Shown here: positions 2,914 to 62,705 of the stretch, piece after piece
Numbering within the stretch: position 1 is the first letter of the stretch
Layout: each line of letters opens with the position of its first letter
Origin: Podarcis cretensis
Lineage: Eukaryota
Length of the DNA stretch: 64,000 bases
Assembly: GCA_951804945.1 (NCBI GenBank)
Contig: OX638151.1
Location: 56,296,001-56,360,000 of the forward strand
Direction: 5' to 3'
Program-made: the position numbers and the translations under genes
The notes under the pieces: generated by a model
Told to the model about the DNA's origin: nothing
What the model saw: the letters and a program-made list of their open reading frames with translations, nothing else
The model's database searches: none

Positions 2914-2964
2914 TACAATGTTCTGGGCCCCTAAAATCCTGTTGACAGCCTTCATTCTATTAAT

Positions 2965-4629
2965 TTTTTTTTTTTAATGATATTTATTAAGATTTTCCAT
3001 AAAATCTTTTCCCCAATAACATCTTTTCAGGACTTCCCCTCCCCTCCCCCTCCTGTATTCCAATTCTTACAAATAAACAAAAAAAAATTTCAACAAGTTC
3101 TTATCCCAAATTTAAACTTATTATCATTGACTCAATTTTAAAAATATTTTCCCATCCCCTAAAATCGACCTGTTCCCTTCCGCGAGTTCCCCCCTTTAAT
3201 ATGCAATACAGATTACAATAGAAGAAAAATTAACAAAAAATAATAATTTTACGCCCTTTGGATTCCAATTTTCCCTCCCCCCTTTCCCGGTTGCGTTCCC
3301 AATGTTCCTCGACGTCTGATATCTTCCTGGAGTTCCCACATCTCTCTAAACCATAGTCCTTTCCCAGTCATCTTTAGTTTCGAATGTCCAATCTTGGAAG
3401 GAGTCTGTCTCAAAAAAGGCCCATTTCTTCCATCTAGATTTTTATATCTAGGGGTGAAAGCTCCAATTTTATTCCTTTAAACCTGTCAAATCTGGATGTC
3501 CCAAATGTTCCCACTTCCAACTTTGTCCAGTTCTTATTATTTTTGTTGTTCTTGTTGATCTCACTCCTCCTTTTCTTTTTCTTTTTCCCTGCTCTCCTGC
3601 ACAAATGTTCCAATTCCAAAAGCTTCTAATTCCTCTGCAGAGGCTTGTTATTCAAGAACAAAACATTACGTCAAGTCCTTTTCATTCTTCAATAGATAAA
3701 TCTATTGTCTCCTTTAGTGCGTAGACCTCTGTAGACAAAATAGTGTTCCATTTCTGCAGTTTCCCAGGAGATAGAAAGTTCTGGTCAAATTCCACGCCAA
3801 CAATACTTGTAATGTCCCTCGGCTCCTCTAAGTGGATTGCAATAACTAAATTCCCTTCCAGATCACGTCCACCAGTCAAAATAACTTGTTATTCCTTGTT
3901 TGTAACAATTTGTATCCAATTTATAACAAATGTAACCGGCAAAGTCCTCGTAACAAAGATCTCTATTTTATTCTTCCGCTTTGACAGCTCTTTGACAGCT
4001 GTCAAAACCTCTATTTCTCTTCTCCCGGCGCTCTCACAAATCGCTCCCAGGGTTCCGGGGGGGGGGGTGGTTGCTTTTTAATTCAATTCCACCTTTCTCC
4101 TCCAGCTCAGTCTTATGATTTTCCCTCGCGAAGTTAATAACTTTGTCAAAATAGGGTTGCACTCGATCTTAGTTGTCAAATCCTTTGCTTTAACTCTTCT
4201 ACAACAGGGGGGGGCTGACTTCCTTTTTGCGCCTCCCCCGCTCGCTCCGAATTTTTTAAAAAAAATTTATCCCCCTTTTTAGTCCAGGTTCCGATTACTC
4301 ACGGGTTATTCTTTTAAGTCCAGATTTTCAATAGAAGAAGTCAGCGCTCTCCGTCGAATGGCATGCGGCTTCGCTCGGCAGGGGAAGCGAAGGACTCAAA
4401 GCACCACTACCCCCCTGTCACCCGCTCCGCAGCCTTTAAAAAGGCTCCTTCGCGGGTCGGGGGGCGCAAAAGGTGCCAGCCGAGTCACCATGTCCATGGG
4501 TTTCAGCGCCCATGGTTTTTGAGGGTCCCCGCGTCGCCGGTGCGGTAGGACCCAACCCCTGCCGAGCAGGCTCCCTCTGGAGCTCAGAGGGAGTCCGCCA
4601 TTCGGCGATGGCGCCAACCCGGAAGTCCC
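2965..4629 (-). mobile_element. Full-length non-autonomous L1-type (HAL1-like) retroposon, copy A, with decayed ORF
   Basis: Perfect 17-bp TSD GCCTTCATTCTATTAAT (2948-2964 / 4630-4646). Minus-strand AATAAA (2983-2988) followed by poly(A). 5' end GGGACTTCCGGGTTGGCGCCAT. CpG-rich leader homologous to 10522-10854. No RT or EN motifs seen. Confidence 0.85.
3290..3804 (-). pseudogene. Frameshifted remnant of the ORF that is intact in copy B
   Basis: Manual frame-joining gives NLTRTFYLLG(fs)KLQKWNTILSTEVYALKETIDLSIEE, EELEAFGIGTFVQ and ELQEDIRR. These match copy B ALNRTVYLLGKLHKQIDVMATNIDILGTKVGISIE, EEIGASGAFGLGRTVKQ and ELRTLDIRS. The 3' boundary is approximate. Confidence 0.7.
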
Positions 4630-4858
4630 GCCTTCATTCTATTAATAAAGCCACATAACACTGCTGACTCAACACAATCCTAGAATCTATTTCACATATA
4701 CTACTACCAATCCAGGATTCCCCATCCTAATGCCTGTACAACTTATTGCTGTATATTTGTTGTTGTTGTTGCTGCTTTGTCTGAATGCATTACTTTTGCA
4801 TTTGTTTGCTTAATTTCAATGTGTGAGTTTCAGCCCCATTTTCATTTTGAATTTTCTA

Positions 4859-5090
4859 CAGTGGTACCGTGGGTTACGAACTTAATTCGTTCTGGAGGTC
4901 CGTTATGAACATGAAACTGTTCTTAACCTGGGGCACGCTTTCGCTAATGGGCCTCCTGCTGCCACTGCGCTGCCGGCGCACGATTTCCGTTCTTATCCTG
5001 GGGCAAAGTTCTCAACCCAAGGTAAGTATGTGCGGGTTAGTGGAGATTGTAACTCAAAGTGTTTGTAACCCAAAGCGTTTGTAACCACTG
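4859..5090 (+). mobile_element. Tigger-like MITE (same family as 18525, 57949, 62377)
   Basis: TA-CAGTGGTACC...CCACTG-TA, with shared internal sequence TTAATTCGTTCTGGAGGTCCGTT...GCTAATGGGCCTCCTGCTGCC. Confidence 0.85.
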
Positions 5091-5499
5091 TACTCATCTT
5101 CTATTGTGCTGTTTTGTTTCATCCAGAAAGTTTATCCTCTGAATAACTTCATTTAAGGTACTGAAAAAAATGTTGAAAGTACCAGTCTGGGGTTAGAGCT
5201 TTGCAGCAACTCACTCAAAACTTCCCTCCTGTTTAATAAAGAACCTGGCTCCTGGTTTAAACCAGTTAGTTAAAACCTGGCTACTAAAACAAGCTAGGAT
5301 CAAAACCCATCATTTCTTATTTCAATAAACTGTGGCAACCGAGTATAACTAATTTAAACCCGAAGACAAATGCTCTGAACTCCTTCTCCAGCTGCGCCAA
5401 AGGAGAGATGAGGGAATCAGCCTAAGTCTCACCTAGATCAATTCACATATCATTTAAAGCATGATTCAGCATTATATGTAAAATGGGCAAATAGCCACA

Positions 5500-5718
5500 T
5501 TTTATTCTTATTCTTTTCTACCTCCGTCCATTTGTGCCCCAGCCACTCTGGGCAGCTTCCAGCATATATAAAAACACAGAAAAACATTTAACCTTAGAAA
5601 GCTTCCCTACACAGGGCTCTCTTCAGATCTCTCCTAAAAGATATATAATTACTCATTTCCTTGACATCTGATGGGAGGGCACTCTACAGGGTGGGCGCCA
5701 CTACCGAGAAGGCCCTCA
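5500..5718 (-). mobile_element. L2 LINE 3' end
   Basis: Reverse complement reads GAGGGCCTTCTCGGTAGTGGCGCCCACCCTGT (RAFSVVAPTL) followed by an L2-type tail GCTGCCCAGAGTGGCTGGGGC...AATAA. Confidence 0.75.
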
Positions 5719-7866
5719 TAATGCTAAACCATTGTTTAATATTACACATTTGAATTAACCTATGACTGAAGAAGCGAAAAGTTGTGATAGCAGCTTAGAA
5801 TGTAAGTCTGAAGATGAAGGCAACTGAATGGACAGAATTTCCTTCTTTAATAAACCCTGGATTGAAGAAAGAGACTCCTAAAAATGATTTAGAAACAAAT
5901 CAGTTTGGGAATTTAAAGACATATCGGCTTTCCATTAACTCATTAAGTTGATGTAGTCTGGGCTTCCAGATGAATCTCCATTAATTTCTACTCTGACCTC
6001 AGCTAGTCCACCTGCTAATTGAGCCTCATCATCTGAGCAGACAGACCATCCTCCAAACCACAGTTTGAATGACTTGAACCAAACAACAGGCTTGGACTGT
6101 CCCTCCTCCACATGTTGCTTAAGACTGCAATCAAATCCCATTGAATTCAATAAAACTTACTTTGAAGACACCATTAGGATTGTGCTGTGATACATCACTT
6201 CCTGGTCTTATCAACCGCTGCTTGCTGTTGCATTCAAACCAGCAAATCAATGATTTGAATGAATCCTTCGAACCAGGATTATGAAACAATATAAAAGTGT
6301 GGTTTGCAATTCTGCTTTGGAGGGTTTGCTCAAGCCATTATTCAGATGTAATGACAAACAGTAATTTAATTAAACCAGAAAGTAATGCATTAAACTCTGT
6401 GTGTGAGCCAATACAAGCCTGTGGTTAGTTTCCTATCATCCAAACCATATTTTGAAGAATCATCAGAATGCTTATTATGGCATCTATAGCACTAAAGAAC
6501 TTGCTTTTTATGTCTTGTATATACCCAATCCAAACATACACAAAATGAGAACTTTAATAAATGATCATTCAGCAATTAGCAGATGTCGGCTAAAAATTTC
6601 CAAAAGCCATTTGGATACTATGTTACTATAATGTTAACATATTTTTAATTAACATAAAAAAGAAAATGTTTTGTATTTCCTTGTTTTTTATCATAATTTT
6701 CAATTAACATTAAAAAGAATTGCAGCTACTATAAATACTTACCTGGGAGCACATCCCATTAAGACCAGTGGGCACCACAATTTAATAGAAATTAAACAGC
6801 ATTGAACTGTTAAGTGATCAGGAATCTAAGAAAATATCTATCAAAATAAATGGATGCCAAATACACAATAAAAGATGCAATTTTATGCAGCGTTTCAGAA
6901 AGTACTGCTTAAAATATTATTTCCTTGATGCAGTTTTTCCATATTTGAGGAAGCATTTGCTAAAGTTAATTTGCTGACATCCATTTTTCGTTACTTATGT
7001 CATGCACAGATTTGAACTGAACCTCTGATATAGATATGATAAACTAACACGTTGAAAGTAGCTATGACATCTTCCACACAAATTTAGGTCCTCATAGTAT
7101 AAAGAAAAAGTGGTGAGAAACCAGATATAATGAAAGAGAAAGGTGCTGTTTACACATTTATCTGTTAGGCTCACACGTTTCCAAGTACATTGCCAGTTAC
7201 TTTAAACAGCAAGTGCTGCAATAATTTGGCATCCATCCATCTGACAATTTGATTCACACCTCATTTGCTACTTAAGTTAAAATATTTCAGACAACCTTGA
7301 GAAAGTACCTCTTGTCTCCAGAAAAATGCATATTTTTATAACAATGCCAAAGGTCTCAGCAAACACTATAAACACAGATCTTTCAAAAAATCCGTCCTTT
7401 CAAAGATGTTATCTGGAATTGTAATATGCATGCACATGCATACATAACACTGATTTCAGACTCTGGCACCAGTTCTGAGGTGGATACTTTAAGAGGTAAG
7501 CAGGTTTTGAATATATTATGCTTAATTGGTGGCAACAACGTAAAATGCAGACTTCAATACAGACAATGCAGGAACTTTAACATGTTGGAGCTAGAAATAG
7601 GAAAATAATGTTTCACAGCATTAGGATTCTTAGGTTATCCAGTGGTTGCACACTTACACAAAGTTCCTCCACCCAACTTCAGCTTATTTACTCCTCCCTG
7701 TATTGCACAGCCCACACAGTTCAAGATGTCCACAGGCCCTCTGGGGAGGCTCTTAGGGGAGTACAGGAGTTGCACGATGGAACTCAAAATAAGTTACACA
7801 AGTTGCCCCTCTGCTTTAGCAACCACTGGATATAACCATAAGGTTGAATCCTATGGACTCAATGTA

Positions 7867-8222
7867 CAGTGGTGCCTCGCAAGATGAAATTAATCCGTTC
7901 CGTGAGGCTCTTCGTATAGCGGTTTTTTCGTCTTGCGAAGCAAGCCCATTGACAGCTTAGCGGATTAGCGCTATTAGCGGTTTAGCGGCTTTTAGCGGAT
8001 CAGCTGATAAGCGGCTTATCAGCGGATCAGCTGATAAGCGGCTTAGGGTTTAGGAAAAGGGGGGGGGAAGGGGAAAAACCCCGCAGGAACTCGCAAGACA
8101 TTTTCGTCTTGCAAAGCAAGCCTATAGGGAAATTCGTTTTGCGAAGCGCGTCCAAAACGGAAAACCCTTTCGTCTAGCAGGTTTTCCGTCTTGCGAGGCG
8201 TTCGTCTTGCGGGGTACCACTG
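7867..8222. mobile_element. Tigger-like MITE with internal tandem palindromes
   Basis: TA-CAGTGGTGCCTCGCAAGA ... TCTTGCGGGGTACCACTG-TA; internal repeats GCGGATCAGCTGATAAGCGGCTTA. Confidence 0.85.
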
Positions 8223-8679
8223 TACAGAATGGGTTTATCAGTTTCCTTAGCCCCTTTTCGGAAGCAGACTATTGACACGCACGGGCTGCTCTAAACTAGA
8301 TTTCAGTGTCATGCTTGACTGGTGTTCACCACTTCTCCAGCCACAGTTCTACTTCTGCATATGAGGACAACTTCCATCGCCAACATCCAGAGGCACATAT
8401 CTAACTATATGCCAACCATACAAAAGCTGTAGTATGTTAAACTGAATTGTTGCATGTTCAGATATGTAATTTTATACATGGTGGGAGCAGACATCATCTA
8501 ACACACGAGAAAACTGTGGCTAAAGAAGCAGGCATCTAATGTAGGCCTTAGTAAGCATTTTAGTTACTTTTAAAATATTTTATTTTAATGAAGTAACCGA
8601 GTCTTCCCCAACCTGGTATCCTCCAGAGGTTTTGGATTCTCAGCTTTCAACAGCCTCCATCAGCATGGCCAATGGTCTA

Positions 8680-10854
8680 TTTATTTATTTTTTAAAGATT
8701 TTTATTAAAATTTTAAAGGTTACATAAGTCACAACAAAAAAACACCCAATTAACCCCCCAAAAAAGCAATACATAAAAACAAGTCACATCAAAAGAAAAA
8801 GATAAAAAATGGAAAACAGACAAAAAACAAGCAAAAAAATTGCATAAAATCCAGAGAAAAAGAAAAAAAAGAAAAAACAACAAATCAAACCTTTACATAA
8901 CTTTCCTTCTTTAACTTATTTCCTTGACCTCCTCACACCTCCCCTCTTTGTATTCTGATTCAGTTAGATATTCCAGCAAATCCTTCATCCTTGTTTTTAT
9001 CCTAATAATTTATCTTAATATACTGTAATTTTAAATTCTCTTCTTTCACCAATTAATCGTCCATTTTTACTTTATTTAATCTTATTTCTCATTAAAACTA
9101 ATATATTGAACTTAATCTCTTAAGACATTTCCCCTAGGGTCATAAAAATTTCATTCCACAATTTTTCCATTTCTCATTATTATTATTATTTTTTAAAAAA
9201 TTCCTTATATACACTTTAAATTCCCAATTTCTTTCCTCCGTCTCCCCTCCCCAGCCCCTGCCCTCAGTTCCATCAACCTCCCAGCGTCCATCAACCTGGA
9301 GATCTGATATCCAAGGTTCTTAACTCTTCTTCATTTCCCTTCTGCCGATCTTCTTGATAAACTTTGGTGCTAAAAAGCAGATCTCGGGGGAGCTCCATCC
9401 CAACGATGGTTATATTCTTTCTTGACAAGTCTGCCAAGTTTCCATAATTAAAGCTAGGGCCCATAAAATATTCCAAACCTTGTTTCACAGTTCTTCCAAG
9501 TCCAAAGGCCCCCGAAGCTCCAATCTCCTCCTGGCTCAAATTCATATTCCAAAAGTCATTTGATCCCTGCATAAAGGGATCTCTCCACTTTTCCTTTTCC
9601 AGATCAGGCCAGGCACCCAACTTCAAAAACTGGCTTCTCCTAATTACAGTCATATGAGGCCTCAAGTTGTAATCCTCCATTTGCCTCTTTAGGGTTAAAG
9701 CTCCCCCATATTTTGCTTTATATTCAACAACAGCAACAACAGCAACTTTCTCCTTCTCTAATTCATCGATTTGTTCAGTTAAGAAAGGTTCTTGTGCCGG
9801 GTTCTTGTCGACTTCTATGCTGATGCCCACTTTTGTTCCCAAGATATCAATATTAGTAGCCATGACATCTATCTGTTTATGCAGCTTTCCCAGCAGATAA
9901 ACTGTCCTATTCAGAGCAGACGCTACTTCTTCCTTTACCGACATTCTTAAGAAATTCAAGGTCAAAACTAGTTTCTCACAGTCCTTATCTTCAGAGTAAT
10001 TTCGCAGCTGCATACTTGTAACAATGTCCCAAAACTCCCTCTAGAGGGAAGCAGTCTCAATTTGTATCAATCCTTTCCAGCACAATTCCAAAAGTAAATT
10101 AATAACAGTTCCCAGTTACTTTTTCTTCTTTTTAAGTGCAGAAGCAGACAATAGAAACAATGTCTTTCTTTTAAAGCTAGCTGTCAAATTAATGCCAACT
10201 GTCAAATTAAAGCTAGCTGTCAAGTTAAAGCTAGCTGTCAAATTGTCCTGTTTACCGTCGATGGACTTTTTGCAAACCGTTCCCAGGTTCAGAGACGTAA
10301 TGCTTCAATCTTTAATTTTCCACCTTCTCCTGCAAGTTCACTTGGTCAGAATTGATAGTTTCAATCAGTGGAGTTTTAATCCTTTACGCGAGACTTTCCA
10401 AAACCTTAGTTAGTAACTACTTTGCTTCAGTCTATTTACAGAAAGGGAAGGTGGACTTCCTGTTTAGACCTTCCCCGTTCGGTGCCAAATTAAATTATTT
10501 AAAAGCTCAATTTCGCGTTCTACTCACGGGTTGTTGTTTAGAATCCAATTGTCCACAGGAAAAAAGTCAGCGCTCTCCGACAGCGGCAATGCGGCTTCGC
10601 TCCGTGAAATAAGCGGTCAATTCAAAGCACCGCGCCTCTCACCCCACATCGCTCCGGATTCCCGGTACCGGGTCTCCCCACGAGTAGGTGGGCGCAGAAG
10701 GTGCCAGCCGAATCCCAGGTTCACAGACTTCTCCCGTCTGTGATTTCTAAGGATCTCCGCCATCGCCGTGGCGGACAGACCCTGTTTTTCATGGAGCCGG
10801 TTCCTCCCGATCAGAGGAGCTCCGCCATTGCCGGAGGCGCTAACCCGGAAGTCC
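8680..10854 (-). mobile_element. Full-length non-autonomous L1-type (HAL1-like) retroposon, copy B, with intact ORF
   Basis: Perfect 19-bp TSD CAGCATGGCCAATGGTCTA (8661-8679 / 10855-10873). Minus-strand AATAAA (8701-8706) and A-rich tail. 5' end GGACTTCCGGGTTAGCGCC. About 840-nt leader, one 240-aa ORF, about 610-nt U-rich 3'UTR, no RT. Confidence 0.88.
9291..10013 (-). CDS. 240-aa retroposon-encoded protein, possibly a divergent or truncated L1 ORF1p derivative
   Basis: ATG-to-TGA ORF inside a TSD-bounded element, homologous to the decayed frame in copy A and preceded by 633 nt with no ATG. SRKNITIVGM weakly resembles the ORF1p RRM-start motif (R.N[IL]R[IL].G[LV]PE). Confidence 0.6.
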   Translation of the reverse strand: MQLRNYSEDKDCEKLVLTLNFLRMSVKEEVASALNRTVYLLGKLHKQIDVMATNIDILGTKVGISIEVDKNPAQEPFLTEQIDELEKEKVAVVAVVEYKAKYGGALTLKRQMEDYNLRPHMTVIRRSQFLKLGAWPDLEKEKWRDPFMQGSNDFWNMNLSQEEIGASGAFGLGRTVKQGLEYFMGPSFNYGNLADLSRKNITIVGMELPRDLLFSTKVYQEDRQKGNEEELRTLDIRSPG

Positions 10855-11214
10855 CAGCATGGCCAATGGTCTAGAATAGGAGGGATTCTTTTTCATAGCA
10901 AGTGGTCACCAGCTTGGAGAAGGCTAGTGTAACCATCTGGAAAGGTTAGCATAACTATTCACAGGCAAGTTCCACAAGACCTAGTCAAAAACACAATACA
11001 AAGTATTGTGTTACAAAACACCTCACCCTATTCAAAATAATGGTCTCTGTCGGGCCAAAATTGGTTCTGTATCAACTGGAGGTAGCCAATTTGGAAATAG
11101 CATTGGGTAATTTCACAGAACACATGCAAGTAGGTCTGTGCAACTGGTCTGGCCGGATCCCGAACCAAATCAGACAGACCAGGGAAGCCCTGGCTCCCCC
11201 CAGGCTGTCAATGG

Positions 11215-15880: not shown

Positions 15881-18524
15881 AGTTATGAAAAACAGAGGAG
15901 ACTATCTGGAGTTTCCACACTGACAACTTACAAAATGGATGAATATACAATAGCCAATACTATACAGATTGGGTGGGGATTAACCTACCGCCAACCATCC
16001 CAATCAGGGCATATGCTGTGTTTGGTTGCATTTTGCCTGGATATTGTTGGTAAGAAGATCTTGGCGAGATCAGACCAAAGGCCTGTAGTAAAGCATTCTG
16101 TTCTCACAGTGGCCAACCAGACATCCATATCACCCATCAACAAGACGCGAGCACAATAGTAGTCTGCCACTCAAGTTCCTCAGCAACTAGAATTCAGGGT
16201 CTTGTGTCCTGCCTCATGAGGCCTAGCAGCTATCTTTCTAGAGATCCTTACTACCCTTTAGGAATTTTTAAGTATGGCTACAGTATTTTGCTTTATACAA
16301 TTAAATCTCTGGAAATGATAGTAACATTTTAATTTTATTAGCAAATGGAAAATGCGTGGGTGACAACACAAAATATACAAGTTTACTCCAAAATGTTTTC
16401 TATATTTTTGCATACCACAGTAATGTTTTGCTGTAGTCAGCCAAAAACTCAGAAATCTGTTTTCAAGCAACAGCTACAGCTGATTAACAAGGAATTTCAT
16501 TTGCACCCTATCACACTGTACAAATTAATTTATTTTCTCTTCTTTTTTGAAGAATATCTGTTGAATTCATACAGTGCTTCTTCAAAACTGGTTGCTTTTC
16601 TCCTTCGAAAAACACATAAGAAAATGCATACCTTTTAAAAAATTAAGGCATTACAGTATGATTTTAAATAGATACCCTTGGTTTTCTAAGCGTTGTCATC
16701 AAACTCAGCCACTACACTTACAAAGGGAATAAAAGCTTAGCTTATTGTTACAAAAAATAGACCATAATAAAGGTACAACTGAGCAACCAGCAGCCAGAAA
16801 CTATTACTCCAAACAAACAAAATAGCCTCTCAAACTTCTCTCTTTACAGTTCTTTTTCACAGCATCCAAATCAGCAGCTTATCTTTGTCAGTGAATTATT
16901 CTTTCCTCTGCCAGGCAGGAGAGCTACTTGTCTGTGTATACTGCCTGTGTGTTATCTATATATGCATTCCATTTGAATCCAATTTCCTTGCATTACCTCT
17001 GCCCAGGTCAGGGATGAATGGCTGTCAAATTCCCTCAGGAATAAAAAGAAAAACCCTTTCTTCCTGAGGCAGCAAGTTTCAATTCACAGAGCACATGGCT
17101 AATCTACATATGTGAAGGTCACAGCACTTCAGTCAAGGAGGTTAAGAATGGAACAGCTCATGTAAGGGGCTGTCTTAAACATCTTGGCATGGCGCCCAAC
17201 AACTGAGATTGTTGAAAAGCAATAGATAGCTTCTGGCAGCACCAAGAGTAAAAATATTTTGATCATGTGATGCCATGCAAGCAAACCACTTTGCTTCATG
17301 TGAGAAACTTTTACAGACACTAATACATACCACATTTTGAATCAACTCCAGGCACCAGCCTCCCCTCCCCCATGCTTAGTAACTGAGCTGAGGGGGGGGG
17401 GAATAGAAACACTAAAATGACTTCAGTGGAGGCTGATAATTTCCCAAGTTAAAAAGAAATTAATCTTACAGCAAACCCAGGGATATAAATAACAGTTAAC
17501 TATAAACATCACTACAAATATCACCCTAACGGAACTCAAACTGTTTGTGCCACTGAAGTCAATTATCTTCATTTATTTAAAGGGACTGCAAAATAAAATT
17601 AACTCTGTCCACCATAATAATTCCTCATTGTATGAACTCTGCTGAAGTTCTCAGCTCTAATGCCAGATACATTTCATTTTCATATTGTACAGTTAAGGCT
17701 TGCAGTTTCACATACAAATTAGCTTGCACAGCCTGCTGCTTCCATGAAATATGCAAGTGGTCACTTTTAGTGTTTGTTCTCCACACCCAGACTGGAAAAA
17801 TCTATATGCTTGGTTGTCCAGGTGCCTAAAAATTTGATGCTGGTGCATAAGGAATATTTTTACACCACCATTATCCCCTTGCAGGGTTTTTATTTTGCTG
17901 AGTAGGAAAGAATGAAAAGAACCCTAGCTGGGAGGGGATGCTGGTAGTTATAAGGATCACACATTAAATGGAATAGGAATACATTAATTAGACAAAACAG
18001 CACATTTCAAGTCCAAGACATAGGAAACAAAGCCAGAAAATTCTGAAAATGCAGGTCACCAAAAACCTTCTATTTCATTTGAAAATTAAGGGAATGGTAA
18101 CTACATCAGGTGTTTTCTCAGCACCACAGTTATAAATAAAACCTAACTACCTATTCAACTGAAGAAAACTGTTTTACAAGGAACTGAAGGTAAGAAATCA
18201 GCACCAAGTTTACTGGCCCAGCTACTGTATGCTTAGTACCGGGCACAAATCATGATTGCACCTTATCATAAACCATGCTATTAACCCAATATTGAAAGTG
18301 TATTATTACAACACTGAAAGCACATCTCCTGAATTTGGATGCTATACCAAACTGCGAAGAGTCCAGTCTCCCAAATACTCCTTTTTTCTAGCCTATCTTT
18401 TCACCTCTCACAATATGCAATTACATTGATTAGCAATGAACTCCTACACATGCCTACTCAGGAGGAAGTCCCTTTGAGTCTCTGGATAGAGGGTTGCATT
18501 TACCTTGTTGGATCACATCTTGTA

Positions 18525-18739
18525 CAGTGGAACCTCGGGTTAAGAACTTAATTTGTTCTGGACGTCCGTTCTTAACCTGAAACTGTTCTTAACCTGAAGT
18601 ACCACTTTAGCTAATGGGGCCTTCCGCTGCTACCATGTGATTTCTGTTCTCATCTTGAAGCAAAGTTCTTAACCCGAGGTACTATTTCTGGGTTAGCGGA
18701 GTCTGTAACCTGAAGCATCAGAAACCCGAGGTACCACTG
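18525..18739 (+). mobile_element. Tigger-like MITE
   Basis: TA-CAGTGGAACCTCGGGTT ... AACCCGAGGTACCACTG-TA. Confidence 0.88.
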
Positions 18740-19004
18740 TATTTATTTGCTATAAATTGGGACAGATTTGTTCAACTGACCACTTCTTCTTGAGAGGACA
18801 AAAGTCCAGCAATGGTGACAAAACAATCTTTATATTTTCCAAAACATGAGATGCTGGTACGCATGCTCCCAGGTTTTTCTGACAGTTTTCCACAATCCTC
18901 TTTAAACTATTGAGGTGAGGCATAAAAGCAATTTTGGAAAATGGTATAAAGCATTCTACATTGCAATTCTGTGTGTATATACTCAACAAATATATACCAC
19001 AGTC

Positions 19005-24800: not shown

Positions 24801-27546
24801 TTATTATTTTTTGCCTTCATTACATTGTTATTTTAAAAGAACTACCAGTTTACCTCCATTATCTTCTTAATTACATTTATCAGTTGGAAAGATGTTAAAT
24901 TGTAATAAAATGGGGGGGGGGGGAAATACTAATGATCAATGTTCATCACAAATACTATGTAAAGTATCAAAGAAAAGAATGTTGCCAGAATATGTATTAT
25001 AAATCACATCCTACATAATAGTACCAAACAGATATTTGCTACTACAAGCAGGATGTGAACAAGTTAAGTGCAAACTATGTTCATTCCAAGATTCATAAGG
25101 ACATTATGATTTTGTTCTCATTCCAATAAATAATAAATAACTGTAACACCTATTGGGGCTAAATAAGACACAACAGTAACACGCATCTACAATCCTCCTT
25201 GCTATGCCTTTTCTACCTATTAAAGCTATATGTTTTAAATAGTCTATTGTTTAAAACAAAGGAGACAAAGCAAATCTTTTAAAATTGATTATGAGATTAC
25301 ACATACACATCTTCATTACCTAATGGTTTCAACTAACCCTTTTGTCTCAGAAAATTCAAAAGAGTAAAAGATTAACTCACTAAATTCTTACTTCCCCGTA
25401 AAGGAAAAAAAAAGGAAGAGAAACAAAAACATTAGAGAAACACACTGTAGACAATAGACAAATATGTTTTCAGTCTGTTCAAGGTTCAAATTATTTTTCT
25501 CAGGTTAACCCATCAGTTACTACTGCAGTCACTGTCTACTCCAGGACATAATCATTTTAAAATGTCTTTTACTCTGAAACCAAGCTTTGAGAGTCCCCAA
25601 AGACTGTATGTGAGAATTTATTTCTTCTACCACTGTTCCTGAAAGCATATTCAAAGATTTAACAGTCCATAATAACAGCATCTTGTTAAGGATGGAAAAG
25701 GTCCCCAATAAAACTTAAATATATTGTTACTCCTTTAACATAATTCACTTCCTTAAAAATCAAAGCATAAGCTTGTATTTTATTTTTTATATCAACAGAA
25801 CTAAATGAAGCATGATGCCTGCTGTTTCTAATCAATGAAATCCAAATGCAAAACAGATTTTTAAAAAATATCTATGGTTTTCTGGATTTTTAAAAAATAA
25901 TTTTAAACAAAAAAAGTGACAACATTATATAGCCTTGGTTAATACAAGAGGTCACATATCTAAAGATATTGGAGACACAAACCTCATAACAAGTACACAA
26001 ATAAAGCTAATGCCACTAAATATATATTGCATTAAAAATAAATAATGTATAATACTATGCAGAATGAGTATGAATGTAGAATTCAGTCAAACAAATGCAG
26101 ATTACAGCATAGATTTTCCACAAGATGTTCTACTACAATTACACTTGTTTAAAAAAGCCCTAATGGTTTAAATAAAAAGCAATTGTTAAAAGATTTATCC
26201 ATGTCATCAAAATAAAGAAAATCTTCAGCGTTGATTAACAAGAAAACTACACATAAATTTAAACAGTGAAGATCCAATGATCACCTAAAACATTCTTTTT
26301 TAAAAAAAGATTGTCTTTTTAACATAACAGTCCCTTGCTTGCTGAATCCTTCTTAACCTCAACTATCAAAAGATGCCTGCCAATTATTTCAGCTTCTTCT
26401 AAGAATGCGTAACCTTGCATCTGTGAGCAAAAGTGCTCAGTTATTATTTGTGGCAAGAATTTTTGTGACTGTACTGCTCAGCAATTCTATTTACATCAGC
26501 AATGCTAAATGCCCAATGGTGAGAGAGGAGCCAATCAGATGGCAGATTAGATGTCAACTCAGAGGCAGCTGTCTGGAGACTATTACAGCCAGTTTACCTC
26601 CACAATTCAAATTCCAAACCTTGCAAAAGAGATCAAGTCACTCTTTAGGCTCAGACTGCCGAGCAAGAAACATCAAGAGTTCTGAGTTATTTCCTATGGT
26701 TTTAAAGGTGGCAAAAAGACAACTTTTTACGAACATCGTCCAGACATGATCTGATGCCTACTGAATTGGCAATTCACAGCCTATAACTGATCAGAAATAT
26801 TGTGTAGCCTCCAGAAACACTAACTGTTGATCTCTTGCAATACTCACGCCTTTTTTGTTAGATTCTCCCCCATCAACCAACGAAGCGTAAAGTTTGCCCG
26901 TAAGGGGAGAGCAAACACAGGGAATATCTAATTATAACATTCCACATATTTTTAAACTATTTTTATATTGGTTGTGAGGACATGAGAAACATGCCAAAAG
27001 AGAAAGTCATTTGAACAACCAGGATGTGAAGCTCTTTATACTACTGTGGAGCATAGATACAACATATTTAAACTGTTTTTGCTCAGTTTCAATATAAAAC
27101 TCTATCCAAGCAACACTATTTTCTAATAACCCAAACGAGAAATAGATCAAGACAGGAAAGGAAAGAGTGTGATTTTGCAAGCTCTGCTGGTTATGGCATT
27201 GGTTCCTCCCTTTCCCATTCCAAAGTGATTTTCCTCTGGGCCTTGTGTGTTCGGATTTCTAATAAGTCTAGAGTAGGAGCACTGGGTGGGGTACAGTGGG
27301 TCTTGTGTATTGTTCAACTATATAAATGAAATGGTCTGATTTTTAGGAGGAAAGTCATCCCCCCTCCCCATGATGTCTTTCTGACCTAATCAGAGTCAGA
27401 CACTGTGCATTATCCAACCCTGTGAGGGAGGGCAGCAAGGAGTTGAGATGGAGTAGGAGAAAAGTAAATTAGAAAGAAAGTAAAGACAGACACACACAGG
27501 CAACTGAAACAACACACTGCTTGCTCTTTTGGGTTCTTATTGTTAC

Positions 27547-29307
27547 CTGGCTCCTGCTGATGGTCTGTCCAGTGTTTCCAGGGCTCATAGCCGGGTGATT
27601 TCTTTGTTGTGCTGCTGCCCAGGCTGGGTTTGCACCTCCATACTGGGAACCCATGTCCTTGCCCATGCCTGCTGCTGCTGCCTGCTGGCTTCCCGGAGCG
27701 GCTGCTGCTGCTGCTACTCCCTGAGCCTGCTGCTGCTGCGATGGGGCAGCAGTGGGGTTGGCATAATCGGGGTAGCCAGTGCCATAGCTCCTCATCATGG
27801 GGCTGGGGGAAGTGAGCAGCTGGTTCAAGGTTGGGGTGGCCCCAGACGGGTGTTGGTTTTGCCCGGAGAACCTTTGGAAGCCCGCAGACCCCGACGCCTT
27901 GCCGAGGCTGCCTCCTCCTCCGCCCGGGCCCAGCATCATACCCTGCTGGTGCTGCCTGGGGGAGTTCAGCACCCCGAAGGCAGACGAGGAGCCCCCATAG
28001 CCGCCGCCGCCTCCTCCTCCTCCTCCTCCTCCCGCCGCTGCTGCTGCTGCTGCTGCAGCCGCCGCTCCTGCTCCTCCTCCAGCGTTGCTGCCGCCGCCAG
28101 GCCGGCCGTAGGCGCCCGCGTAGTGGTTGTACTGGCTGTTGGCGTAGCCTTCGTGCGAGTTGGGCAGGGGGTCCATGCTGTTGGGGGCCGCCGCGGGGTG
28201 CATTAGCCCCATCCCGGGGCTTTGTTGTCCGCCATGTTGATCAAAGCAAGGCCCAGCCCGGCTCGCTGAGGAGGCGCCTCCGCTGCTGCTGCTGCTGCCG
28301 CCGCCAGCGCTGCCGTAATAGCTATTAAACTCCGAGACACCCACCGCTGAGGGCCCGCCGCCGCCGCCGCCTCCTCCAGCGCCTCCGCCGCTGCCCGCTC
28401 CCTGAGGTGGTGGCGGCGGCTGCCCGCTCAAAGGTCCCAAGCCGGGGTGGTCGTAGCGGCTGCCGAGGTGCTGCTCGCCCATTTTGTCCGGCGGCGTCGC
28501 CGCCTCTTCGTCGCCGCCGCCGCCGCCTTTATTCGCCAAGGGCTGGGACTGTGGCCGGCTCTGGGGCTCGGCCTGTCCCCCTAAGCCGCTGTCTTTTCCT
28601 CCATGTTGCTGCTCCATGTCTGCGCTGCTGGGCTGAGCAGCGCCGCCACCGCCGCCGCCGTTGTTGTTGCTGCCGCCGCCGCAGCCGCCGTTGTTGTTAT
28701 TCTGCATCGGATGGTGCTGAGGCGGCGGCTGTTGCTGGAATTGATTTAGCTGTTGGTGTGGAAGTGCATGGTGGTGGTGGTGGTGGTGGTGAGCATGGGG
28801 GTGCTGGGCATGGAGGTGAGCTGGGTGCTGGTGCTGGGCATGGGGGTGGTGGGAAGGTGCGGCGGTGGCGGCGGCGGCAGGGTGATCGCCTCCGACGCTT
28901 TTCAACTTGTGGTTGGGGAGCAGCCCTGTCTCCATAGCCGGGGTAGAAGAAGAAGAGGAGGAGGAAGGTAAACCCGACGAGCTTCCAGCTTCTTTCAGAA
29001 CCGATTCCGAGGAAGAACCGCTGTTGTTATTACCGGTGGCGGCGGCAGAAGTTGCATTATTGGCCATGTTCAGTTCATTATGGTGGTGGAGGAGATGGTG
29101 GTCTACATTATTCAAGCCGCCGCCGCCGCTGCTGCTGCTGCTGTTAGTCCCATCTACGACCCCCAAGAGGGAGCCCGGTCCAGCAGCTCCTGCGGTGCCT
29201 GCCACGGGACCCCCAGAGTTGAGATCCTGGCTTAAGTTGCCCGGCAAACTCGGGGTTTTGCCTTTCTTGTTCGCACCCGCCGGAGCCGCTGCTACTTGCG
29301 CGGCCAT
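27547..29307 (-). CDS. ARID1B: AT-rich interactive domain-containing protein 1B (BAF250B), first coding exon (587 codons; possible in-frame ATG two codons upstream at 29313)
   Basis: Diagnostic ARID1B N-terminal peptides [77 protein letters not shown] and [15 protein letters not shown]...RSQ. The exon ends CAG|GTAACA (phase 0) where human exon 1 ends. Start context ATCATGG. The next exon is not in the window. Confidence 0.95.
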
Positions 29308-29490
29308 GATCATTGCAACATTGCAAGGAGGTGGGGGAGAGAAATCAATTAATTCCCCTCCAGCCTGGAAAAAAATGGGCAAAACAAATGGGGGTGGGGA
29401 GGGGGAAAACCCCCCAAAAGCCCCACAATTCAGGAAACGAACGATTTAACAAAAAAGCCTGCTGATCATTCCCTCCGCGCGCGCGCGCAC
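27800..29490. promoter_or_regulatory. CpG island over ARID1B exon 1
   Basis: Dense CpG and GCC/GCT/CCT triplet runs against an AT-rich, CpG-poor background; alternating (CG)n(CA)n tract at ~29476-29498. Confidence 0.8.
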
Positions 29491-55315: not shown

Positions 55316-57948
55316 CTCAGTGAAGTAGTAAAGACAAAGTGAAGATTTTGGATAACAAAGCTCCTTTAATTCTTCATTTTAGAGAGCAGGTGAGGGCTTA
55401 CAGATTAAGGTTGCGGTCCTGTGGTCTCTGGGAGGGCACCAATGGGGCCACAGAAGTGCCAAATTTCCCATTTTGAGGGGAGAAAGAGAAGCTCATCTTC
55501 AGAATAGGAGATCCCTCCTCCATGAGGTTGTGGAAAGGTCAGCTCTCCTCAAGCGTTGGAGAGGTCAGGGAGGAAACATTCCTAGGGAATGTATGGGTTG
55601 TGGACCTTAAGAGCTACCAACCTCCCATTTGCCTGACACACTCTTGGAATGGGATAGGTGGGGGGACAAACTACACCAGCCTTGGAGGTGACAGAGCTTG
55701 TTTTCTTTAACGTAAGGGAAACTGTTTCAAAAACAAAAAACCGGAATATGAGAAATGGTTCATCTGCCTTTGGCTCTACCTCCGTCTGTCCTCTTGGATT
55801 GCTCCACTCATGTTGTCAATAATGTGAGCCCACATCTGAACTGAGAAGTGCTGTAGCCCAGATCCATAAGGTTTGCCACCTCAGCGAGAACTAAGCTATC
55901 TATCTAAAAATGTTCTGCAAGAAAAGTAAAAACATTTTTTTAACCTTTGTTCCCTTGCATTAAGTTTGGCTGTTGAGATCAGAGTGAAGACTTTGGATCA
56001 CAAAGCTCCTATTATTCTTCACACTATAGAAAAAAAAAAGATTTGCACTTATGCAAATAGTTACAATACTTTGAAATAATGTTCTGCTAGCTAAATGTAT
56101 TTTTCAATGTACTATTTAATTATGGATATGCTTGATTTAACACTTAGTATCAAAATGCTAAAAATCTCAAAAGTGCTAAAGTCTACAGGAAGCACAATAT
56201 TGCTGTATTGTGTGCAAAAGCATTTTAAAGATTCTGATTCTGGGAGAGCTTTATTGAAAACAGTACTTACTTGTCTATGGGGCCTAGTGCTATCCTAGTG
56301 TGATACAGGAGAGAGAGGGGGGGGGAGAGAGATGGCCCTTTTGACACATAAACCCTGGGCACAAGCTAGCTAAAATTATACACATTCAAGTCCCATTGAT
56401 TTCAAAGAGAGGTTTTTGCATTTTTAAGTTGATTGACTTAAAAAATTAATCAACTGTAACGGCCCCAGTTCATACATCTGGCATGAATAGCAGGTTCAGG
56501 ATGTTTTAAAATGAATTTACAAATAAGCTTTTTGGCTAAAAAGAAACAATACCAGAAATAAAGATGGATGCTTAAAAGTTATATTGTGTTCCCTATCTTC
56601 AGATCATATTACATGTCCACCATGTTTACTTCTATACCTTTAACTCCATATTTTTACTCTTTCACCCCTGCCTCTGTAATTTATTTGCTTCGTCTGATAT
56701 ATTCTGGCACACATTCAAATAACCTAGTAGCTAAGTGAAATAGCATATACTTTCTACATTGCATTAACAGGAATTATTAAGTGGTATTACTGGGTGGTTT
56801 TTTTCCTTGCGCACATGCGCATGGGCACGCACAATGGGGGAGAGAGAAATATGTTATCACTTCTGTATTTGAAATAGTAGTTTCATTTTGTTTTGAGAAC
56901 TGCACATCTTTCATTCTTAGCTGGTAAGCTGACAAAACCAAAGCAACCTGGATAAAAATGAAGGGATTTCAACCACCGTGAAATACTGTGTGACATAACG
57001 GCCAACATAAAGCCATCATTCTCAATGTTTACATTGGTACTGATTCTTAACAGCATGACGTTAGCTCAACATAAAGCTATGCTTTTTCTAAAACAACTCA
57101 GGTACAAGGAGAGCCTTTAACAACCAATCATGTTCCAGGTCTATAAAGAATTACACTACCAATCCAAACTGACATGTACATTAAAGCTCACCTATGGGCA
57201 CCTTAAATTTTTACTCAGAGCCAGGGATTTACTCATCCCGAGAAACACAATAGTTGTTATGTACATATATCATTCCAGAAATCAATGGATGTTCCAAGTG
57301 TTACAGTTCCGTACATATCCAATTGTTTTACAATTAACCCAATATGACACCTAAAGAGAAAATTTAAATAAGGAAATTCACATCTCGCAGCGTAAATCAG
57401 CAGGATGAAAAAGCAAGCATTGACAATGCTTAACAATTTGGCTGCTAGTACAACAGCCTGTTTCTTTGAAGTTATTTATGTCTCTGTAGAGTTGCAGCAA
57501 AGGCTGATGTATGCAAAGCCATAGTACTTAATGCCAGAACTGACTAGCTGCCAGCATGTTAGGGAAACAGCATTGTGAAGAGGATGTCCAAGGAAACCCG
57601 GGAGCACAACTCTATGTATGTTCACTCAAAGGTAAGTCCCTCGGAGTTTGCTGACTCCCAGGTAAATGGGTAGTCTAAATAGTAGTATATTGATTGACAG
57701 AAGAACAAATAGAAAGTGCCTATTCACTCCTTAGCAATGCTTTACCCATCCCACCCCCTTTTGGCCTGGAGACACTTCTACAGCTGCATTGGATTGTACA
57801 ACCAGGTTCCACTTTAAAGTGGCTTCCCACATAGCAGCAGTAAGTAAGACAATGTGGTGATTCACTCAAAAAAAGCAAAACAAACCACAACCACTGATCT
57901 GCAACATGACAATGTGCAACTACTGCTGCTTTAGAATATTTCCCAATA

Positions 57949-58190
57949 CAGTGGTACCTTGAGTTACATTCGCTTCAGGTTACATATGCTTCAGGTTACA
58001 GACTCCGCTAACCCAGAAATAGTGCTTCAGGTTAAGAACTTTGCTTCAGGATGAGAACAGAAATTGTGCTCTGGCGGCGCGGTGGCAGCAGGAGGCCCCA
58101 TTAGCTAAAGTGGTGCTTCAGGTTAAGAACAGTTTCAGGTTAAGAACGGACCTCCGGGACGAATTAAGTACTTAACCCGAGGTACCACTG
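57949..58190 (-). mobile_element. Tigger-like MITE
   Basis: TA-flanked with CAGTGGTACC TIRs; close reverse complement of 62377-62618. Confidence 0.9.
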
Positions 58191-59298
58191 TACTTGATAG
58201 CTAAACATACATACATTGGTTCTGAGTTAAGTGAACAATAGGGGCACAGTACAGAGTGAGAGTTCTTAAAGGAAAGCAGCCTTCTGTGCCTGATGGCGTG
58301 CTTTGAGGGCTTGTCCATCACGCTTGCAAATGACATTTATTTATTTATTTAAAATTGTGAACAAGCTCCTGTCTTTTGTGTGTGCCCAGCTTGCAAGAGG
58401 TTATTGCCATCCTGAAACAAGTTATGGCGGTGAACTGGGAATTTGGCAGTCTGGTACTGGTACGGAAAGATTCCTCTTAATCACGAAATCACTTGATTCC
58501 AGGCCAAGCGTAATAAACAACAAACTCTTGCATTAACAAGTCAAGAACTAGTGTGGCCCAGTGGATACAATGTTATGGCCACTTTACACATTACATTTTT
58601 AGGGATACACCTAAAAGGGTTTATGTATGCTTTAAAACCGCAGGATGTGAATGCGCCAAACAAAAATTTGGAAACACATATATATCAGTCATTACTGGCT
58701 TCTTCTCTCTGAGTGTACACTTGACATCGTTCCCAGACCTGTCTCTGTGTAATGTGTGAAATGGCTCTTAAACATGTGCTCAAGCTGCATTTCAGCTGCA
58801 GTCTCAAAAGCACTTTGCAGGATTAAAAAAAAAAATCCACACAGAAATGACTTCTATGCAGGAACTATGAATCCTTCTTGTAGATCAAATGCGACAATTG
58901 CATTCATTAGGGTTTTGTTCCATGTCCTTGTGCTGGGACAGGGCTGGCACCAGGTTGACAAGGCCCTGAGCAATGTTCCTTCCAGTTCTTCTCCCCACCA
59001 AGCTCACCAGAGTACAGATGACACTGGCCAGTGGCAGGCAGCAAAGGAGGAAGGCAGCAGCACAGCTCCAGCTGCACTCCCTTGGCCCAGCATTGAAAAG
59101 AGAAGCACTACAGGGCAAGGCAGTTGCAGCCAGCATCACTAACATCCTCTTTCTTAAACCCAATTCCTGTAGGCATTCTCCCCAATCAGTACATGGAGGA
59201 TGGAACCAAAAGGTTATATTAGGTAGGATCTATGCATCTATGCCTTTAGGAACCATTTGGTTCATCTATTGTCCACACTGTCTGGCAACAACTCTAAA

Positions 59299-61393: not shown

Positions 61394-62376
61394 GAGGACG
61401 TTGAGTGCCTAGGAAATTGTTTGTCCCAGGGCTCTTTGCTGGGTTGCACACAACAGTATGTCAGTGACAAAAACCTCTTGACCATCATCATCATTATGTA
61501 CAACAGCACCAGGGAAAAAATTACATGTTCCAGGGCCTTTGTTGCATAGTGGGCCTGACATATCAACAACCATGGATTCGTGGAAGAATGTAGGCCTCAC
61601 AAAGAGGCCTTCCATTTGCAGCTGCCACAAATGCAGTTTGGATGAGGAAAGAGGCTGAGCTCATGAGTTTTGGGGTACACAGAGGAGTTGGGCCTGGGAG
61701 AGGTGTTTGAGCCTTCCTGGTGATGTCATTAGGAGCGGGACAGGTTTCCAAATACAGGTGGCGGAACAACGTGGCAGCTTGGTGGTTGGGCGGGGGGCTG
61801 CTCTCGTGCATACTTCACCATGCATTAGAAAATCTAGATAATAAGGATAGTTCATCCCACTACCAGCACAAGCCAGGCGATTTCTGATATAATCTTTCAT
61901 TCTATTATTCATCAATTAATATTTTTATATCACTTAATACACATGATCTCTCGTGCATGGTCTCTACACACCTTTACATCTGCTGAATGATTTATAATGA
62001 TTCCTCTGTGGGAAATCCCCACAATATGCCTAAAAATGATCCTGTGAATTGAAATTACTTTGTACTTAAGCAAAATTTTGCCAAAAGGCATCTTTATTGT
62101 TGGCAGGTCTATTATCATCTCATTTCTTCTGAATGTAGGCAGTAGACCATGCCTTTTGGTCTACTGGTAGGATTCACATCATCGTGTATACCAGACCCAA
62201 TTCAGCAAGGGCAAAGCCTCATTGAAAGCAGTCTTCCTTGTATGGATCCTGTTTCTGAATCCCTTACACAAGGATGGCAGCCCTACCAACACACTCCCTT
62301 TAATGGTTTCTATGGATGCTACTTTTCTAGAAAAGGAACCGAGACTCACCATGAATGCCTCCCTTGTTCTATTTTA

Positions 62377-62618
62377 CAGTGGTACCTCGGGTTAAGTACT
62401 TAATTGGTTCCGGAGGTCCGTACTTAACCTGAAACTGTTCTTAACCTGAAGCACCACTTTAGCTCATGGGGCCTCCTCCTGCTGCTGCGCCGCCAGAGCA
62501 CGATTTGTGTTCTCATCCTGAAGCAAAGTTCTTAACCTGAAGCACTATTTCTGGGTTAGCGGAGTCTGTAACCTGAAGTGTATGTAACCTGAAGTGTATG
62601 TTACCCAAGATACCACTG
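62377..62618 (+). mobile_element. Tigger-like MITE
   Basis: TA-CAGTGGTACCTCGGGTTAAG ... ATACCACTG-TA. Confidence 0.9.
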
Positions 62619-62705
62619 TAATGGCAATGGCTCCCACCTGAGAGGTTCCAGAACTGAGTTCCAGCTGAAAAAAGCCCTGGGCACAGTTATCTGTGCTGGA
62701 TTGGG

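Follow-up and report, generated by a model that had tools for sequence, protein, structure and literature searches.

The roughly 330-nt leader that occurs twice in the 64-kb window (the whole 64,000-nucleotide stretch of Podarcis cretensis DNA that was analysed) belongs to lizard clade-1 L1 retrotransposons and to their ORF1-only derivatives, whose 5' module it forms; tree-aware tests support selection on base pairing within it. The two elements that carry it here, A and B, are 5'-intact insertions of ORF1-only (HAL1-like) elements derived from this L1 clade. With differing letters, the leader and its predicted multi-branch fold are found in dozens of coexisting related families. The elements are of a known kind; the RNA motif is the new part, its function is predicted, and we found no published description of the fold in the literature. 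The original prediction was right to place the leader in both copies, with a correction on strand: the RNA corresponds to the minus strand, along which the promoter motifs, ORF, and poly(A) of A and B all run.

Features of element A:
2964..4629, minus strand: element A, a 1.66-kb non-autonomous L1 derivative of a young family, 5'-intact and poly(A)-tailed
4630..4645 (5' side) and 2948..2963 (3' side), no strand: 16-bp target-site duplication (TSD) of A
4293..4627, minus strand: structured leader of A, helices P1–P13 (CM match 312.8 bits, this copy being in the model; z -6.7)
4594..4628, minus strand: promoter head of A, ETS-like ACTTCCGG and YY1-like AATGGCGG, by motif match
4373..4567, minus strand: long-range helix P5, with the most compensatory events
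4494..4515, minus strand: predicted hairpin P8, with compensatory changes; the first hairpin cited in the original prediction
4296..4305, minus strand: donor-like (U1-complementary) site CCC/GTGAGTA, first intron-type G at 4302
4204..4245, minus strand: downstream hairpin P14, conserved loop GGAAGTC
3991..4006, no strand: 16-bp palindrome with two TGACAG motifs, in the downstream 5' UTR

Features of element B:
8680..10855, minus strand: element B, a non-autonomous, HAL1-like L1 derivative of 2.18 kb whose ORF1-derived frame is open
10856..10873 (5' side) and 8662..8679 (3' side), no strand: 18-bp TSD of B
10518..10853, minus strand: structured leader of B (CM match 301 bits, this copy being in the model; z -3.9)
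10821..10854, minus strand: promoter head of B, ETS-like and YY1-like, by motif match
10721..10743, minus strand: hairpin P8
10521..10530, minus strand: donor-like site, first intron-type G at 10527
10441..10480, minus strand: downstream hairpin P14 with the GGAAGTC loop
10181..10241, minus strand: array of four TGACAG motifs, in the downstream 5' UTR
10037..10048, no strand: 12-bp palindrome, conserved, lying roughly 100 nt 5' of the ORF
9291..9938, minus strand: 215-aa ORF, a degenerate ORF1p by hhalign of family profiles against autonomous ORF1

The L1-clade hallmarks are present, namely a poly(A) tail, AATAAA, and TSDs, the last being at least 10 bp long in 36 of 53 copies (median 17 bp). 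The elements span 1.65–2.18 kb between TSDs in 36 copies and have no reverse transcriptase; a small remnant of the ORF2 end, kept in some non-autonomous families, is the only part of ORF2 found. An ORF1-derived protein is the sole product of family B and its relatives, whose profiles match autonomous ORF1 with an hhalign probability of 97.9% (E 5e-13). The 215-aa protein of B itself matches the autonomous ORF1 HMM with an E of 1.7e-9 and is internally deleted where it aligns with the central, RRM portion of autonomous ORF1p. This protein has no match in Pfam or the ESM Atlas and one unnamed homologue (61%) in the protein database, and pairwise dN/dS of the B-type ORF has a median of 0.62 (15 pairs). 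Element A is a degenerate HAL1 case in which the ORF1-derived protein has been lost. It is 94–98% identical to 29 other copies of its family, the ORF1 remnant is interrupted in every copy examined, and no ORF longer than 161 aa lies inside the element in the 30 copies checked. HAL1 elements, as the available text of PMC5753468 describes them, are likewise non-autonomous L1 derivatives with an ORF1-derived protein only, poly(A), and TSDs. The lizard elements differ in that ORF1p is internally deleted to about 200 aa or, in family A, lost, in that some families keep the ORF2-end remnant, and in that many families coexist. In an autonomous element (L164), the 1,243-aa ORF2 matches RVT_1 (E 1.6e-33) and Exo_endo_phos (E 2.7e-14) above cut-off, while ORF1 has coiled-coil-type matches only, all sub-threshold. 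A genome-wide profile search with PF02994 (L1 ORF1) gave zero matches and was uninformative, as it also gave zero in controls. ORF1 starts at +808 to +1,021 in 20 elements.

Comparison with autonomous L1 5' UTRs, a check proposed at the outset, showed that autonomous ~6-kb L1s and ORF1-only derivatives have the leader in common. Its 5' motif has 4,731 genomic matches, versus 4 for controls. Among 38 hand-picked long loci, the leader heads 15 ORF1+ORF2 elements (intact or broken pieces) and 13 TSD-flanked elements of 1.7–2.3 kb. Autonomous and non-autonomous families resemble each other most in the leader, with identities of 0.58–0.73 up to +450 and 0.24–0.46 thereafter; the ~330 nt first assigned to it do form a leader, but conservation continues to about +450. 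The elements have the 5' end GACTTCCGG...ATGGCG and the long 5' UTR of lizard clade-1 L1. Anolis clade-1 L1s, in the available text of PMC5381506, share this 5' consensus, the long 5' UTR, the ~6-kb length, a short or absent ORF1-ORF2 spacer, and a 5' UTR more conserved across families than the ORFs. That text deals with sequence motifs and CpG islands and treats RNA folding for the spacer only; it contains no description of the multi-helix fold, the donor-like site, or P14, and 'splic' is absent from the main text.

Each of the six conserved anchors originally reported has exactly two occurrences in the window, one in A and one in B, and the cited hairpin stretches, four in all, bear the letters quoted for them at the coordinates given. 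The variable segments between anchors do fold alike, with 74 of 96 consensus pairs kept in both A and B. They had been called unrelated in sequence, which they are not, being homologous and alignable at about 68% identity. Among the 74 shared pairs, 55 are identical, 7 have changed on one side, and 12 on both sides while still pairing; a further 21 consensus pairs are broken in A and/or B and 1 is gapped. One cited example, 4420–4457 versus 10661–10672, was ill-matched, setting a whole arm of A against only the tip hairpin of B.

As stable as the leader were 0 of 100 dinucleotide shuffles of the minus strand for A and 0 of 100 for B; a comparison with GC-matched shuffles had been put forward as a check on the stems. 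Covariation was assessed on 61 leaders aligned by sequence alone, with 96 consensus pairs. On internal tree branches we counted 22 compensatory double changes, against a null mean of 2.4 and a null maximum of 7 (38 nulls with the same re-folding), and the consensus energy was -144.8, against a null mean of -100.1. A rate-matched null gave 8–10 such changes where 28–30 were observed. In a test of self versus swapped arms, 30 independent pairs scored 60:26 (p 3e-4), compared to 344:378 in controls. The structure-level selection initially proposed is thus supported by tree-aware compensatory and swap tests. For single pairs the power is low: an all-versus-all G-test with a tree-shuffled null found 1 significant pair among 39 leaders and 0–1 among 61, and a two-set test gave 4 of 96. 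The sole significant pair in a model-fitted alignment was discarded as a misalignment artefact due to a register error in P8.

In the predicted fold, P5 of A encloses a four-way junction formed with P6/7, P8, and P9–P13. Internal double changes in P8 are compensatory in 7 of 7 cases (swap test 6:0). Invariant, unpaired motifs occur at the junctions: GAAG, an A-rich linker, and the P14 loop. The fold ends at the GTRAGTA donor-like site, with P14 behind it, and the P14 loop motif GGAAGTC is complementary to the 5' end of the leader. Covariation in P14 was 74% versus 23% over all pairs and 11:5 on independent pairs, the latter not significant. Helix P0, between the 5' end and the donor, was dropped as a fixed feature, since it had zero compensatory changes on internal branches and was lost in 11 of 12 leaders on folding 400 nt.

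Conservation of the anchors is partly at the DNA level, because the two 5'-most anchors match ETS-like and YY1-like internal-promoter motifs; the 5'-most of these, ACTTCCGG, we take to be an ETS site. The earlier reading missed this promoter match, and it overlooked the donor-like site at the 3' edge. In A the YY1-like motif doubles as the 5' strand of helices P2/P3, and the partner strand of P2 co-varies with the YY1-like strand (swap test 7:0). An ATG lies at +24 to +27, inside P2, in 61 of 61 leaders. The lizard clade-1 5' consensus and the mammalian YY1 site given in the available part of PMC5381506 match the leader head. None of the other ETS+YY1 heads (19 loci and 5 more) matched the leader model, so having such a promoter head is not enough to predict the fold. 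Farther downstream, the TGACAG palindrome of A is presumably TALE-homeodomain-like, and the 12-bp palindrome of B may be acceptor-like or a protein site.

The donor-like site is conserved, and spliced copies are absent at the tested junction. Of 30 unselected copies, 27 have GTRAGT between +311 and +333 and 2 more have a CpG-decayed form. Position +3 of intact sites varies between G and A only, an observation that concerns the kind of variation, as the leaders were chosen by the site. The exon side (CCC) is a poor U1 match. At one predicted junction, 0 spliced genomic copies were found versus 3,047 unspliced, other acceptors having been searched in B-type families only, and 0 of 3 B-type copies without the donor T were spliced. 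Assembled contigs (presumed RNA runs) aligned to B and to the 5' end of an autonomous element had no donor joint; such contigs cannot show starts or strand. In Anolis, 7 of 9 clade-1 consensus 5' ends in the supplement of PMC5381506, compared by eye in the portion available, have similar closing stems and GTAAG behind a GC-rich head. The human L1 5' UTR also has a conserved, rarely used donor (G98U99) near its internal promoter; according to the available part of PMC5860796, mutating this donor lowers RNA about 5-fold, and structural sequestration was suggested by the authors. The human case differs in that no covarying fold is shown in that part and in that SpIREs make up about 2% of full-length insertions, as against none here at the one tested junction. 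The same text explains conservation of the human donor by a RUNX3 DNA site, and by analogy the lizard site may have a DNA-binding role. We rejected the donor as a shield against HUSH, as splice sites around stuffer sequence gave no protection in the experiments described in the available part of PMC8770142.

We tentatively favor a model in which the leader, with its promoter-like ETS/YY1 motifs over a maintained predicted RNA fold, helps keep the nascent transcript full-length and unspliced. The ETS/YY1 DNA motifs would set the Pol II start at +1, and the RNA would fold into a rod (P1–P3) with a three-way and a four-way junction, placing the cap beside the GURAGUA site, which lies some 320 nt downstream. 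This donor-like site could be bound by U1 snRNP without productive splicing, and bound U1 would guard against premature cleavage and polyadenylation in the A-rich body. The 5' end would pair with either the donor or the P14 loop, and the fold would thereby limit how far the donor-like site acts as a real splice site. Non-autonomous families would retain the whole module because, we propose, their own RNA needs it. A U1 role alone does not explain the conserved inner four-way junction.

Selection on promoter DNA only, with stems arising incidentally from shared ancestry and a GC/CpG-rich island, would fit the weak single-pair statistics and the good folding of 1 of 4 unrelated ETS/YY1 heads (z -4.6). 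This explanation is very improbable and already largely refuted, as the tree-aware nulls were rejected, six GC-rich controls from the window had z of +0.4 to -1.6, and helices join segments up to 270 nt apart. Pairing might instead be selected in single-stranded cDNA, for 5' junction formation at the end of target-primed reverse transcription, since antisense folding is almost equally good (median z -4.5 versus -4.8 for sense, with 83 of 96 pairs in common). We consider this very unlikely: in each of 24 leaders the sense strand has the lower folding energy, and G-U exceeds A-C by about 1.7:1 on internal branches, even in shared pairs. The G-U excess in stems (49–54 versus 29–32; Fisher p 0.04–0.11 against unpaired columns) is only suggestive of the RNA strand, and the null shows a similar bias. 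Self-cleavage, as by HDV-like ribozymes (of R2-type and RTE elements) or the twister-sister-like one of the human L1 5' UTR, has precedents as structured RNA in the 5' region of non-LTR elements (available part of PMC11620745), and the junction nucleotides here are conserved. It is nonetheless extremely improbable for the lizard leader. No Rfam ribozyme matched (E up to 5 in the 64-kb window, up to 1 at six other loci), the hammerhead-core CUGANGA occurs in just 6 of 141 leaders, the fold is ten times the size of the 35-nt core, and promoter motifs at +1 make 5' self-processing unnecessary. The ribozyme-like role first entertained is thus not supported, and the suggested Rfam scan returned no known family over A, B, or six other leaders, including SINE-type heads (7SL-, 7SK-, or tRNA-derived).

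Unlikely, in our estimate, is that the fold serves as a signal for recognition or assembly, by which L1 proteins or a host RNP factor pick unspliced leader RNA as template, in a packaging-like manner. Such a signal would account for the success of the 2-kb non-autonomous families, in which the module is retained to +450 whereas the bodies have diverged or, in family A, no longer have the ORF, and it agrees with the invariant unpaired junction motifs and the zero spliced copies at the tested junction. However, non-autonomous elements must keep a promoter anyway, so retention of the module does not discriminate in its favor, and template use by mammalian L1 mainly requires the poly(A) tail. Slightly less probable still is a role in translation, in which the fold would hide the AUG at about +26 forced by the YY1-like motif, and ribosomes would reach the A/C-rich linker without traversing the GC-rich promoter, by shunting or in IRES-like fashion. 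The invariable ATG in P2, the co-varying P2 partner strand, and the adjoining ends of the rod are consistent with this, but the stretch from the donor to ORF1 has 0–6 more upstream ATGs, and the fold is retained in family A, whose ORF is not intact. The upstream ORF has no conserved length (5–75 codons), which rules out a conserved short uORF for shunting.

The layout of the leader resembles that of retroviral 5' leaders around the major splice donor: about 300 structured nucleotides, end-to-end long-range pairing, a donor at the 3' edge, and a hairpin just beyond. The lizard leader differs in having no LTR, primer-binding site, or virion, and the likeness is one of layout only, homology not being expected. 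For foamy virus, the available literature describes U1 suppression of polyadenylation at the major splice donor. Going beyond the favored model of a full-length, unspliced transcript, clade-1 L1 could be retrovirus-like, a quite improbable proposition. A ~450-nt leader would switch its 5' end between the donor and the P14 loop, spliced RNA giving proteins and unspliced folded RNA serving as template; the module would be older than the lacertid-like/anole split and would let dozens of half-L1 families parasitise in trans.

L1 5' UTRs are usually regarded as fast-turning-over DNA promoters; here a large RNA fold is under pairing selection. The fold offers a structural reason for the unusually conserved 5' UTRs of lizard clade-1 L1, and the leader is a test case for why L1s keep splice donors that are hardly used. 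The coexisting autonomous and half-L1 families constitute a natural compensatory-mutation series for the function of L1 RNA structure.

Copies A and B derive from lizard clade-1 L1 (as named in PMC5381506) and are of the half-L1 (HAL1-like) kind, an assignment that follows from copy structure, an ORF1-profile match, and the published 5' consensus.

4629 to 2964, minus strand: copy A, ending in AATAAA and an A-run, with a 16-bp target duplication
10855 to 8680, minus strand: copy B, ending in AATAAA and an A-run, with an 18-bp target duplication

Both leaders start with G(G)GACTTCCGGGTT on the minus strand and are ~68% identical over 345 alignment columns; behind them, the bodies have only short patches in common. 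The genome is rich in near-identical copies of A and B (40 of 40 scored matches at 94–99%). Of the 53 copies with enough flank, 36 are 1.65–2.18 kb long and carry a target duplication of 10 bp or more (median 17). The 5'-motif pattern matched the genome 4,731 times, as compared to four times for the reversed control, and agrees with the clade-1 consensus in the accessible text of PMC5381506. We read 38 loci, hand-picked for diversity among the first 100 sites listed of these 4,731. On comparison with autonomous L1, as proposed in the original prediction, the same motif heads ~6-kb elements that carry ORF1 and ORF2, whole or in broken pieces (15 loci), as well as duplication-flanked elements of 1.7–2.3 kb (13 loci), the rest being truncated, unresolved or having other heads. 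One autonomous ORF2 contains endonuclease and reverse-transcriptase domains. Profile alignment of 12 short-element ORFs to 10 autonomous ORF1s gave a probability of 97.9 and showed a central deletion, consistent with a half-L1 as defined in PMC5753468. Purifying selection on the short-element ORFs is weak (median dN/dS 0.62, 15 pairs). The 215-amino acid ORF of B has no match in Pfam or Atlas and one unnamed relative in the protein database; family A lacks a long ORF.

Nearly all half-L1 ORFs end in one short C-terminal motif, RASDxRxP(G), despite wide divergence elsewhere (window 9291–9330 and loci L163, L174, L181, L185, and L197–L199); autonomous ORF1p, when aligned, shows nothing that clearly corresponds to it. 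Locus L138 (1500–3030) is a chimeric or internally deleted copy, in which the leader breaks off at ~+130 and a long ORF2-like frame (474 codons) follows directly. At L073, L114, L116, L128, and L188, members of different subfamilies are nested within one another or lie in tandem.

The leader, numbered from the element 5' end and with predicted helices named P1–P14, is organized as follows.

5'-most: ETS-like motif ACTTCCGG, a label we assume
Next: YY1-like motif AATGGCGG, doubling as one strand of the P1-P2-P3 rod and labeled after the mammalian YY1 site described in the accessible text of PMC5381506
5' end: predicted P1-P2-P3 rod
Then: predicted three-way junction from which hairpin P4 branches, where a GAAG is unpaired and nearly invariant
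P5: predicted long helix between the three-way and four-way junctions
Then: predicted four-way junction from which P6/7, P8, and the long P9-P13 arm branch
Linker: U-rich, then A/C-rich
~+320: donor-like site CCC|GTRAGTA, complementary to U1, in 27 of 30 unselected copies
~72 nt beyond the donor-like site: hairpin P14, with loop GGAAGTY in 58 of 61 leaders

The P14 loop is complementary to the leader 5' end. Between-family identity is ~0.6–0.7 up to +450 and then drops to ~0.4. A direct helix between the 5' end and the donor was unsupported as a fixed feature. The six conserved anchors originally described in both copies each occur twice in the window (near 4338–4628 and near 10564–10854), and the letters of the cited hairpins were confirmed.

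The predicted RNA structure of this leader is real and conserved, and it belongs to the 5' UTR of a retrotransposon clade that is already known. Each of the two leaders is more stable than every one of its 100 shuffles with dinucleotides preserved (z -6.7 for A, -3.9 for B). Folding z-scores for 24 of 39 representative leaders had a median of -4.8, as compared to +0.4 to -1.6 for six GC-rich window segments, +0.1 to -3.2 for eight downstream segments, and 0, -4.6, -1.1, and -0.9 for four unrelated heads; the sense strand was the more stable in 24 of 24. In the RNAalifold consensus from a sequence-only alignment of 27 leaders, 26 of the 55 pairs have changed on both sides, and a 76-pair hand structure pairs in 85% of cells versus 37–50% when slid. 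Because relatedness can mimic such changes, tree-aware tests were run on 61 leaders (72 model matches minus four fragments and seven near-duplicates), re-aligned by sequence only. Partners of consensus pairs changed jointly on internal branches 28–30 times versus 8–10 for rate-matched random partners, and 22–25 of these changes preserve pairing. Simulation on this tree, with re-folding by an identical procedure, gave 38 null alignments in which compensatory events averaged 2.4 (maximum 7) versus 22 observed, and consensus energy averaged -100.1 (best -114.9) versus -144.8. When helix arms were exchanged within 30 independent pairs of sister leaders, pairing became weaker in 60 cases and better in 26, as compared to 344 and 378 for non-partner arms. 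The signal is mainly in P5 and P8, followed by P2 and P4; P11, P13, and P6/7 are weak in this test. Structure-level selection, as originally proposed, is supported by the tree-aware tests. Against it, an R-scape-like all-versus-all test found at most one significant pair and a two-set version 4 of 96 or 7 of 102, there being little per-pair power because deep lineages are few. A bias of G-U over A-C is no more than suggestive. A further repeat family (L177 and L179), likewise headed by ETS and YY1 motifs, does not match the leader model; the L179 head folds well (z -4.6), but that of L177 does not.

The predicted splice junction occurs in none of the genomic copies (0, versus 3,047 with an intact donor-like site). 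Three B-type copies lacking the T of GT are unspliced, and contigs from two presumed-RNA runs pass through the site or are uninformative. Since the site is conserved yet not removed at the predicted junction, we tentatively favor, at somewhat below an even chance, a nuclear role in which the U1 site protects the transcript without splicing, of which we infer everything beyond the selected fold. Transcription would start at +1 via the promoter motifs, folding would make the cap and U1 site neighbors, U1 binding without splicing would protect the A-rich transcript, and the fold would restrain real splicing. The downstream 5' UTR alone has 0–5 polyadenylation hexamers.

Recognition of the template or RNP through the fold is a less likely alternative, and bypass of the leader AUG in translation slightly less likely again: an AUG lies at +24 to +27 in 61 of 61 leaders, but the uORFs vary from 5 to 75 codons. 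Pairing at the cDNA level is improbable, as is, equally, origin of the stems as a by-product of selection on the promoter only. A ribozyme, among the functions first suggested, is the least probable, as neither leader has any match in Rfam. The fold may work like a structured retroelement leader, yet it fits no Rfam family.

The downstream 5' UTR's most conserved motif is a palindrome 30–145 nt upstream of ORF1, which remains intact in the all-C/all-G variant of some families. It could be an acceptor, an RNA dimerization site, or what we assume would be a CTCF-like or dimeric protein site. Most families also have TGACAG motifs at ~+600 to +670, which may stand alone, form arrays, or make up a perfect 16-bp palindrome.

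10037–10048: palindrome CCCYCTAGAGG(G), with counterparts at homologous positions of autonomous as well as half-L1 families
3991–4006 and 10181–10241: TGACAG motifs, presumably resembling MEIS/TGIF/PKNOX sites
27469–29445, minus strand: 658-codon open frame with Gly/Ser/His/Gln/Ala runs and no Pfam match
4854–5090, 7868–8223, 18520–18741, 57940–58192, and 62372–62620: short inverted-repeat DNA-transposon-like elements starting TACAGTGG, which we take to be Tc1/mariner MITE-like

The 658-codon frame looks to us like ARID1B exon 1; if so, A and B would be sense-oriented in the first intron of ARID1B.

In human L1, a donor that is conserved although seldom used was attributed to a RUNX3 site and proposed to be sequestered in structure (PMC5860796), and the human L1 5' UTR harbors a 35-nt ribozyme (PMC11620745). 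By eye, the first 400 nt of the nine Anolis clade-1 consensuses contain a hairpin resembling P4, its loop being GCTC, and stems that close the 5' and 3' ends with different letters in different families; GTAAG follows the GC-rich head in seven of the nine, GTGAGC is present in another, and the 5' UTR of the last is unrelated. Also by eye, the short 5' UTRs of lizard clade-2 L1_AC17 and L1_AC18 (PMC5381506) have GTGAGT immediately upstream of ORF1, too close for an intron to fit, which may point to a broader use of U1 sites among lizard L1s. The available texts found on lizard or squamate L1, half-L1, L1 RNA structure, U1/telescripting, and HUSH do not describe the fold. The elements themselves belong to known kinds (L1 and HAL1-like), in families that may already be named in Repbase/Dfam; what is new, as far as these texts show, is their fold.
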